A stretch of 11,347 nt of DNA from a virus. Its lineage: Duplodnaviria > Heunggongvirae > Uroviricota > Caudoviricetes. The stretch lies in IMG/VR virus record IMGVR_UViG_2713896784_000017; one strand, given 5' to 3'. Position numbers: made by a program. Below, piece by piece: positions 1-3,000 of the stretch (position 1 is its first letter; the number at the start of each line of letters is the position of its first letter).

Positions 1-3000
1 TTTTTCCTGCAGGGATTTCACCCGACTGGCCTGTTCATCAATCAGCCGGTTCTGCTCTGTCAGCGCCGCCCGTGTTCGTCCTTCATTATCTGAGGCTTCA
101 GGCAAAGACATTGACGGCGTTTTATGCGCGATTTCATCTATCGTCAGTGCATACTGGCGCGCAGACTCCCTGGCCTGCTCCTGATTCTGGTACAGCGTGT
201 ACCATGCTGCAGCCCCCAGCATCACCAGTCCGGGTACGCCACCAACCAGCCCCAGCGCACCGCTCATCAGACGTGAGCCCACCGCCGTTGTACTGTTCAG
301 CGCATTCTGGGCGGCGCTTCTGGCAGCAATATTTCTGTTCAGGCGTTCCTGTGTGGCCGCCAGACGGGCCTCTGCAGCAATCTGCATCTCCGTCCCGCGG
401 GCTGCCGCCACGGCCTGCTGAGCACGGTACACGGCTGCCCTTGCCCGCGCCGTGGCAATCTGCGTTCCCCTGAACTGTGCTTCCGCCAGTGCAACTTCAT
501 TACGTGCAGCCGTCACAAGTCCTGCCGTGGCAGACATCGCTCCGGAGGCCATATTGCCAAAGTACCGGGCAACCCCGACGGCAACCAGCGCGCCCACGGC
601 TGTTGCCACATTATCAATCTGTCCGGCAACACCGTTCAGCATGCCGGAGAGCGTTTTTGTCACCCCGCTGGCCTCATTCGCACCGCCCACCCAGGCCATA
701 AAGGCGTTTTCCACCTTTGTGATACTACTGGAAACCGTTTCCGGCATGGCCGCATATTCATCACGTAATATCCCCAGCTGGCTGATTAACGCGGGGACCA
801 CTTTATCCGCTGTCAGTTTTCCGTCATCCGCCATTGCCTTCAGATCTTTACGGGCCACGCCCATACCCGCAGCCAGTGCACGTACGATCCGGTCACCACT
901 TTCATTGACCGAATTAAACTCCTCACCACGCAATACACCCTGCGCCAGCGCCTGACTGAACTGGGTGATCACCGAGCCCGCCTCTGCCGTACTGGCACCG
1001 GAGATTTTCAGCCCTGTCGAAATGGCCTCCGTCACCTTCAGCACATCATCAGCACTGTAACCATATTCACGCATCGAGGCAGCCGAACGGGCAAACAGGG
1101 CCGCATTATCCGAAAATGCGGTGCCTGTCCGCTGGCTGATATCCATCAGCACTTTCTGTGATGACGCAAATTCATCGGATGACTGTGATGCCTGTTTCAG
1201 ACGGGCATTCACGGAGCTCCATTCATCCGCCAGCGAAATCAGGTGTCCGGTGGCAAAGGCACCGGCAAACGCACCGGTCATTCCGACAGCCGAAGCGCGG
1301 ATTTCCGTCAACTGGCTGTGCAGCTCAGCCAGAGCCCGGCGCTGCTCCCTGGCTGCCGCAGCAGCCTGACGTCCGCCATTCTGCAGGGTCCGGTAATATT
1401 CACTGCCCATACGGGACGCCCGCTGGATCTCCGACTGGAATGACTGTGAATTTGCCGAAATTTTGATAATCAGTTCACGTAACGTCGCCATTCACCTTTC
1501 TCCGGGCGTAAAAAAACCGCCTCAGCGGTTCTCATCATTCATGACTGTGCTGCAAGGCTCAGCGCGTCTTCCAGCGCCGCAAACGGATCCACCTCCGGCT
1601 TATCCTCATCCTCGCCCCAGCAGAGCATGGCGTCCTTCAGTGCAACATTCATCCCCTGTGCCCCGAAAACCGCTTTCACGATCTGTGCATTACGGATATC
1701 CCCGCGCTCATCACCCAGCGGGGATATCCTGTCGAACTCCATCCACATCATCGCCTCGCTCGCACTCAGGCTGTGGCGCAGTTCGGATAAGGTGCGCCCC
1801 AGACGGAGCGCAAGTCGCATCAGAAAGCGAATTTCCGGGCGGGCTACTTTTTTCTGGCCGACTCTGCATCAGCGATCAGTTCCAGTGCCTGACGCAGCAA
1901 CCGGGCATGTACCGGACCATAGACGGCCAGCACCTGCTCACGGTCGTCCGGAGTGAACACCCGCTGCAGGTCCGTATCACACAGGACATCGCAGAACAGC
2001 GTCACATCCGCTTCCAGGTTACGGCGGGTTTTCGCCACCACCGACAGGGTATCGTCATCCTCTCCATCACCATTGAGCACTTCCTGCCACAGATACCAGG
2101 CCTCTGCCGAAGGCTCCCGCAGCACCACGCTGACATTACCCCATTCCGGCACCTTCACCGTTTTATGACGAAACCCTGACAGTCTGGCCAGCGCCAGCGT
2201 TTTCAGATCCTTTTTCATGATGACCCATCCCCTTATCCGGCGGCAGCGCTCACTGTCACGGTGCATTCAACAGACGTCACACTCTGTGCTTTCTCTGCCG
2301 AATCGGTCACCACACAGGTATATTTCCCCGCATCAGCGGACTGCGCACCTGGCTTACTGAAGGTGTCTGTCGTCTGCCCGTCAACCGGCTGACCATCCTT
2401 CTTCCAGGCGTATTTATACGGCGGCGTTCCCCCGTTGGCACTGACTGACATTGTCAGCAGCGCACCGGTATTCACGGTAAGTGTCTTATCCAGATTTTTC
2501 ACAAACGCCAGCGGTACCACAAAGGACACCGGTTTGCCTTTCAGACGCAGTGAGAACGTTGCAGCCACCACGCCGTTGGTACCGGATGACCAGGTGTGCT
2601 GGCGCACTTCCGCCAGGAATTTAAAGCCCTTACCGGACGGAAACAGCACCTTAAACGCATACAACGCGTCATTGTCATAGGCATCACGCAGGGCGTTCTG
2701 GGCCTGATTCAGATAAAAATTGCCCGACATGGAAATCTCAGACGACGCCCCCAGACCATTGATGTTCTCCTGCTCTGTGGAGCAGAGCGTGGTCACATCA
2801 ATATCCTGTTTCTGCCCGGCGGTGAACTGCACTTCCTTGATGGTGCAGTCCAGGCGCAGATATTCCGCCTTATCCATAGTTTCAGCAGTCGCCGGGGCAG
2901 ATGAAATCATCACCTGCGTCAGCTGTGAGCGTTCATACAAAGCAGACATTCTGCCTCCTGATAATAAAAAACCCGCACGCGGCGGGGTATGGGTTTTGTA

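Follow-up and report, generated by a model that had tools for sequence, protein, structure and literature searches.

The shift site and its two reading frames

The DNA analysed here, called the window throughout, is the whole 11,347-nucleotide (nt) stretch of the Caudoviricetes record IMGVR_UViG_2713896784_000017, and our subject is the junction of its genes G and T, which have the major tail protein gene on one side and the tape measure gene on the other, as judged from the Pfam domains of the neighbours and from the annotation of an identical genome. The G/GT -1 frameshift is said, with reference to Levin 1993 and Xu 2004, to be a paradigm of long-tailed phages. The 1-kb stretch around G/T (window 1400-2400 compared) matches the chromosome of E. 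coli O157:H7 strain ECP19-598 at 100% identity and the Shiga toxin (Stx)-converting phages 2851, YYZ-2008 and Stx2a_WGPS6 at 99.9%, and the G/T module was found in 1246 of 5426 complete E. coli genomes. The junction is made up of the following features.

1844..2218, minus strand: gene G, tail assembly chaperone, zero-frame product of 124 amino acids plus TAG (translation, Pfam, PHROG, annotation).
1847..1853, minus strand: slippery heptamer A_AAA_AAG, place of the -1 shift (sequence, phase, conservation, position within the tested 75-nt insert).
1844..1846, minus strand: zero-frame TAG stop of G, abutting the heptamer and overlapping the first -1 codon, GTA (Val) (sequence).
1539..1847, minus strand: T segment in the -1 frame, 102 codons VARPEIRF...LAAQS plus TGA (translation, Pfam, PHROG).
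1821..1847, minus strand: the nine junction codons VARPEIRFL, which separate the shift site from the annotated ATG of T (entropy, alignment).
1818..1820, minus strand: ATG serving as the RefSeq/PGAP start of a separate 93-amino-acid 'tail assembly protein T' (annotation).

Gene G opens with an ATG at 2218 that is preceded by the ribosome-binding site AAGGGGA, and its 3' end reads ...GCC AGA AAA AAG TAG, with the stop codon at 1846..1844. The initial annotation had placed an A-AAA-AAG motif at the end of G within the interval 1539-2218, directly against the stop codon, and both sequence and phase bear this out: (2218-1853) mod 3 = 2, which makes the first A the third base of the AGA codon and gives the X_XXY_YYZ phase expected of a slippery heptamer within the G/T overlap, and the TAG follows 1853..1847 with no gap. 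AAAAAAG occurs six times in the window compared with 1.06 expected from shuffles, and of the others, three lie on the coding strand (7766, 10957 and 11002) and begin at codon position 1 of their open reading frames (ORFs), leaving 1853..1847 as the sole copy able to support a canonical -1 slip. Starting at 1868, 22 nt ahead of the G stop, the -1 frame runs open through the heptamer and into the T ORF as far as the TGA at 1541..1539, just as had been proposed, and across the junction it reads KK|VARPEIRFLMRLAL... (that is, KK|VARPEIRFLMRLALRLGRT...). The conceptual G-T fusion comes to 226 amino acids (124 + 102), which corrects the first estimate of ~227.

The downstream ORF overlaps the 3' end of G in the -1 frame and lacks initiation signals of its own. 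On inspection of the sequence, the 25 nt upstream of the ATG at 1820 contain no Shine-Dalgarno-like element, and to this extent the earlier claim that T has no start signal stands; what has to be qualified is that an ATG is present at 1820 and is used as a start by databases. This ATG is the conserved Met of an FLM-x-LALRLGR motif and most likely encodes an internal Met of GT, and we consider it very probable that the T segment is produced only as the C-terminal part of the GT fusion.

Family assignments indicate that an HK97-type chaperone G is here joined to a lambda-type T domain. Window G matches Pfam PF06222 Phage_TAC_1 over residues 1-124 of 124 (E=1e-61, 206.7 bits against a cut-off of 25) and phrog_344, tail assembly chaperone, and is annotated as WP_000710952.1 in a 100%-identical O157:H7 genome. 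Window T matches PF06223 Phage_tail_T (E=2.5e-19, 69.9 bits against a cut-off of 25.9), a family to which lambda T is assigned with E=2.1e-14, and also phrog_337. The fusion-length profile phrog_14766, of 224 positions, is matched by G at positions 2-122 and by T at positions 125-224. The lambda gpG family, PF06894 Phage_TAC_2, is hit by lambda G only and PF06222 by window G only, and BLASTP gave no significant alignment between window G and lambda G (E=6.3) and nothing significant between window T and lambda T, so that the relation of T to lambda T is visible at the level of Pfam and PHROG profiles only. Of the two parts that the initial annotation called G and T, only T is lambda-like (PF06223); G is of the HK97 type PF06222 and not of the lambda type PF06894.

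Five in-frame G-T fusion proteins from a large protein database were set aside and not used as support. P0002, P0004 and P0101 carry frame errors consistent with assembly artefacts, P0103 has the T part only, followed by unrelated sequence, and P0001 is an 11-nt deletion variant.

Reporter frameshifting and conservation of the junction

Frameshifting on this sequence has been measured in published work. Antonov et al. 2013 (PMC3711429, Table S2) cloned a 75-nt insert between GST and MBP in E. coli and measured 7% +/- 0.79 frameshift product, and the sequence of this insert equals window 1873..1799 exactly; the reporter assay that the initial annotation had suggested as a check thus already exists for the identical sequence. 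A second insert of the same cluster, of the GGGAAAG type with a one-codon gap to the stop, gave 6% (PMC3711429) and resembles loci L045-L054 of the homologue set described below. The gene ECs1801 of the Sakai prophage Sp9 is moreover listed in cluster A_AAA_AAG_25 as 'tail assembly chaperone; [true]' (Sharma et al. 2014, PMC4066793), and ECs_1801/1802 are ~98% identical to window G/T with an identical shift region. ECs1801/ECs1802, which also fall in the GeneTack 'Phage_TAC' cluster (Antonov 2013), are essentially the same gene pair with the same flanking head and tail genes, and differ from the window in a few substitutions outside the shift region and in a slightly different spacer between T and the tape measure gene. 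The site is accordingly already known, as a catalogued and reporter-tested example of G/GT frameshifting, and a low-level fusion product is made from it, as seen in the literature reporter rather than in the phage context.

The conservation of the arrangement was examined at 53 G-homologous loci in genomes across Enterobacterales (G 44-64% identity), retrieved with aligned G homologues; each G was traced by script as far as its stop, the other frames were inspected, and a T homologue was defined by blastp E<=1e-24 to window T. The T homologue lies in the -1 frame directly after G in 52 of the 53 loci, the +1 frame being short, and 51 carry an in-phase site containing A_AAG at the same junction. 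The full A_AAA_AAG is in phase at 31 loci, abutting the stop as in the window at 24 and lying 4-8 codons upstream of it at seven. Another 20 keep an in-phase site ending in A_AAG, as the lambda-type GGGAAAG one codon before the stop (five loci), as NNN_AAG alone abutting the stop (GCA AAG TAA and similar, 11 loci) or as G_GAA_AAG five codons before the stop (four loci); in 15 of these 20 the site is A_AAG-ending only (NGC/GGT/AGA_AAG or G_GAA_AAG), at the same K|V junction. At 35 loci there is no gap between the AAG codon and the stop. What the loci have in common is A_AAG, whose Lys codon AAG sits at an unvarying K|V junction, a pattern that fits slippage of the one tRNA-Lys of enterobacteria. 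Just two of the 53 loci do not conform, and these are probably decayed prophage copies: in Serratia sp. L9 (L040) the G frame is ~90 nt longer, the T-like sequence is in the +1 frame and no site was found, and in Candidatus Symbiopectobacterium endolongispinus (L042) G contains an early stop.

The codons between the shift site and the annotated start of T carry their own record of translation. In an alignment of 19 diverse homologues, the nine junction codons show zero indels and keep the motif V-x-x-P-x-x-x-F-L, and column entropy by -1 codon position is 0.59/0.72/1.36, compared with 0.69/0.47/1.19 for the body of T; the third base of the junction Pro codon varies freely. This coding-type entropy together with the lack of indels argues that the stretch is translated in the -1 frame, and because it has no start codon, it can be translated only if ribosomes arrive from G.

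The -1 frameshift interpretation with which the analysis began is upheld by the gene order, the Phage_tail_T domain, the 52 of 53 loci and the reporter value of 7%, and the arrangement persists among diverged homologues. With anatomy and conservation established and reporter frameshifting demonstrated on this very sequence, we hold with high confidence that the locus encodes a G/GT programmed -1 ribosomal frameshift of the tail assembly chaperone, within the HK97/lambda-type tail module of an Stx-converting lambdoid prophage of E. coli O157:H7; a ribosomal origin of the shift, as opposed to a transcriptional one, is what we infer from the comparisons weighed below. In the proposed mechanism, the majority of ribosomes would produce G (124 amino acids) and terminate at the TAG 1846..1844, and a minority (~7% in the reporter with the exact sequence) would slip back one base on A_AAA_AAG 1853..1847, where the single E. 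coli tRNA-Lys, pairing weakly with AAG, would re-pair to AAA. The next codon would then be GTA, and translation would continue over 102 codons to the TGA at 1541..1539 to give the 226-amino-acid G-T fusion. On the lambda model, the tape measure protein would be bound and coated by G and by the G portion of GT, and the T portion would bring in the major tail protein; G and GT would both be absent from the virion, and the ratio of the two would matter; GT may play the corresponding role in tail assembly of this phage. In lambda itself G and GT are needed for tail assembly and are absent from virions (PMC5009743), and the function of lambda G/GT and the background of tRNA-Lys slippage are covered by Atkins 2016 (PMC5009743).

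Three further sequences vary at the A-run or right after it. In a JGI metagenome contig (Ga0250194_04094, L058), an 11-nt deletion of GTAGCCCGCCC right after the A-run (contig ~1870-1880; window 1837-1847) joins G and T in frame (...SARKK-EIRFLM...); this is a single contig, and it would yield GT only and no free G. Escherichia phage vB_EcoM-606R7 (L062, 960-975; G 67% identical) reads GTT AAA AAA AAG TAG, and a stretch of eight A's ahead of the G, as here, has a greater tendency to slip in transcription or replication. In a Logan contig of the same type (L059), two A's are lost and G-T reads in frame.

Candidate stimulators and rival explanations

The search for a stimulator covered both sides of the heptamer. 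Upstream, the interval in which a Shine-Dalgarno-like stimulator would lie (6-17 nt), GATGCAGAGTCGGCCAG, is without GGAG, GAGG or AGGA, and Table S8 of Sharma et al. lists no Shine-Dalgarno element for cluster A_AAA_AAG_25 (PMC4066793). Downstream, the 119 nt from the heptamer onward fold no better than shuffles (minimum free energy z=-0.96), and RNAalifold on the 19 homologues returned two pairs at -0.14 kcal/mol, essentially no consensus structure. The Rfam scan of 1450..2250 found no frameshift element, and a mir-11 match in the same interval is attributed to chance. The prediction of Sharma et al. for the same cluster is a 130-nt structure set off by a 5-nt spacer, whose gain in stability over background, 0.020 +/- 0.023, is nil (PMC4066793). 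One hairpin, the only sizeable one nearby, was considered individually.

1759..1814, minus strand: imperfect hairpin with 22-nt arms (1814..1793 with 1780..1759), 77% complementary (inverted repeat).

As a conserved stimulator this hairpin was rejected: it lies 32 nt downstream of the heptamer, its paired cells amount to 64.8% against a shuffle mean of 64.2%, and it shows no covariation. The first impression that no strong stem-loop follows the site is thus supported by the folding scores and by the homologue alignment. Measured against the tripartite signal of dnaX, the window has the heptamer and has neither the upstream Shine-Dalgarno element nor a stem-loop 5-9 nt downstream.

Several points weigh against a programmed ribosomal shift at this locus or limit its force. 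No stimulatory element was identified at the shift site, and we came across no mass-spectrometric or phage-context data in which the GT fusion of this phage is detected directly. The GST-MBP reporter does not separate ribosomal from transcriptional slippage. A bare A_AAA_AAG gave 0.29% in the lacZ reporter of Sharma et al., where the IS911 stimulator raised the value to 4.3% and the IS3 stimulator to 39% (PMC4066793); the ~20-fold difference between 7% and 0.29% means either that the native context raises the level or that the assays are not comparable, and the gap may be partly technical. Finally, PGAP marks the portal gene as 'frameshifted' in the genome that is identical to the window over 1400-2400, and the tail module may therefore sit in a defective prophage.

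A variant of the frameshift explanation, rather than an alternative to it, makes the abutting stop codon itself the stimulator, as in the shifty stops established for +1 sites (PMC3082878). The P site would be occupied by Lys-tRNA on AAG and the A site by UAG, which is decoded slowly; the peptidyl-tRNA would then re-pair to AAA, the E-site tRNA possibly re-pairing too, and RF1 activity would set the G:GT ratio. The adjacency of AAG and stop in the window and at 35 of 53 loci is consistent with such a role, since AAG can re-pair to AAA at -1, and 11 of those 35 loci have the A_AAG tetramer only (GCA AAG TAA), which offers no P-site partner for a tandem slip; the lack of a conserved downstream structure and of a Shine-Dalgarno-like element, and the 7% of the native context against 0.29% for the bare heptamer in another reporter, point the same way. 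The stop, however, lies 1-8 codons further downstream in 16 of the 51 loci with a recognisable site, the tested member of the GGGAAAG class reached a similar 6% across a one-codon gap, the two reporter systems are not directly comparable, and the stop may be a by-product of the conserved T-frame Val codon GTA. From these sequence patterns we regard a stimulatory role of the abutting stop as possible and rather doubtful. If true, it would explain how ~7% is reached at a site without a Shine-Dalgarno-like element or conserved RNA structure, as well as the AAG-stop adjacency at 35 of 53 loci, including the 11 without the first half of the heptamer, and the G:GT ratio would vary with RF1 activity and with the base that follows the stop.

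Two further explanations would dispense with a ribosomal shift altogether. T could be an independent 93-amino-acid protein, initiated at the ATG 1820 either de novo or by re-initiation after the TAG 24 nt upstream, with the heptamer incidental; every RefSeq record examined does annotate this ATG as the start, and the Met is conserved in most homologues. Yet no Shine-Dalgarno-like sequence precedes it, the nine codons ahead of it are conserved as -1-frame coding sequence without indels, Leu replaces the Met at four loci (L022, L029, L046 and L053), the in-phase shift site is conserved, and a fusion product was measured at 7% with the identical sequence, all of which makes independent initiation very unlikely. 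Lambda is not known to make a free T. Slippage could instead occur in transcription, with RNA polymerase adding one A or dropping two in the A6 run and so producing a small share of mRNAs that carry G and T in one frame. The GST-MBP reporter cannot tell RNA-level from ribosome-level events, an A8 run occupies the same site in a close E. coli relative, and poly-A runs are prone to slippage (PMC3711429); six A's are nevertheless shorter than the documented cases, with A runs >7 and T runs >8 (PMC3711429), in dnaX this heptamer has been described as a site of ribosomal shifting (PMC3711429, PMC5009743), and 20 loci keep the G/T arrangement without a six-base homopolymer (GCA AAG, GGC AAG, G_GGA_AAG, G_GAA_AAG), which favours a mechanism based on tRNA-Lys. 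We give transcriptional slippage scarcely any weight, and a programmed ribosomal -1 shift remains the explanation that we prefer.

Related systems, genomic context and significance

Known systems share some features with the window and differ from it in others. The lambda G/GT pair has the same gene position, a short G with a -1 extended GT, a T in PF06223, an A-site codon AAG read by tRNA-Lys and a low-level shift that sets the G:GT ratio; it differs in the family of G (PF06894, as opposed to PF06222 in the window) and in its heptamer G_GGA_AAG, with the G stop several codons later, whereas the A_AAA_AAG of the window abuts the stop. In the HK97-like phage HK544, G is of the same family as window G (63% identity) and is annotated as similar to the HK97 chaperone, the G-T arrangement is shared and the joined coding sequence is annotated as 'programmed frameshift', and its annotation includes a rho-independent terminator immediately ahead of the tape measure gene, at the place equivalent to that of a terminator-like hairpin in the window; the shift site of HK544 is G_GAA_AAG, five codons before the stop, and an additional small ORF separates T from the tape measure gene. 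The E. coli dnaX site shares the heptamer A_AAA_AAG and its basis in tRNA-Lys, and reaches ~50% shift with an upstream Shine-Dalgarno-like stimulator and a downstream stem-loop (PMC3711429); the shifted product is shorter in dnaX and longer in the window, where the level is ~7% and neither stimulator is detectable. The A_AAG tetranucleotide -1 sites (B. subtilis cdd, CGA_AAG; IS1222, G_CGA_AAG) recall the 15 homologous loci that conserve A_AAG only and differ from the window in that the latter has a full heptamer; A_AAG matches the minimal -1 shift motif Z_ZZN (PMC5009743).

All genes of the window are on the minus strand in the order of head-to-tail morphogenesis: terminase subunits, a fused prohead protease-capsid protein, portal, connector and head-completion proteins, tail terminator, major tail protein with an Ig-like domain, G, T and tape measure. 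The immediate neighbours of the G/T pair are as follows.

2233..2949, region to 3018, minus strand: upstream neighbour, major tail subunit with a C-terminal Ig-like domain (Pfam Ig_3, Phage_TTP_11, Phage_tail_2; annotation of the identical genome).
1..1491, minus strand: downstream neighbour, 5' part of the tape measure gene, with ATG at 1491..1489, running off the window (sequence; annotation).

The Ig-like domain of the major tail protein (Pfam Ig_3, Ig_2, I-set) is encoded in frame and not added by a frameshift as in some other phages. In the annotation of the identical genome the tape measure start lies 48 nt past the T stop, leaving a spacer of 47 nt, and the tape measure gene is preceded by a GGAG ribosome-binding site 3' of a terminator-like hairpin. 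This hairpin, at window 1510-1533 on the minus strand within the spacer, reads GAGAACCGC-UGAG-GCGGUUUUU followed by more U's and folds into a 9-bp stem and a U-run; a scan for consensus terminators did not report it. Where late antitermination does not read through it, this hairpin could leave the tape measure gene less transcribed than G/V. A match to isrK, a small RNA of Salmonella prophages, at 1510-1577 (minus strand) covers the full model length, and at 23.7 bits against a gathering score of 50 (E=0.002-0.008) it was rejected; it is carried mainly by the terminator hairpin and U-tail, and is probably not a real isrK homologue.

Further from the junction, the portal gene contains two masked runs of 50 N's, at 5271-5320 and 5009-5058, where the list of ORFs is unreliable; they fall where comparison with phage 2851 shows a directly repeated 153-nt unit. 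In the 3' part of the same gene (~4590-4597, minus strand) the window has G6 where phage 2851 has G7, which breaks the 859-amino-acid portal frame and could be either a real inactivating mutation or a homopolymer sequencing error.

In summary, the finding adds little to the biology of these phages, since G/GT frameshifting is textbook knowledge and this exact site has been catalogued and measured. It does expose a gap in annotation: for this very common prophage module, RefSeq/PGAP and most GenBank records give G and a 93-amino-acid 'protein T' separately, with no ribosomal-slippage join, and a real 226-amino-acid GT product is consequently missing from protein databases. The homologous loci also provide a natural series of shift sites, from the heptamer abutting the stop, through the heptamer 4-8 codons upstream and GGGAAAG, to A_AAG alone, and this series could help to ask what sets the low, fixed efficiency of phage frameshift sites that have no stimulator.

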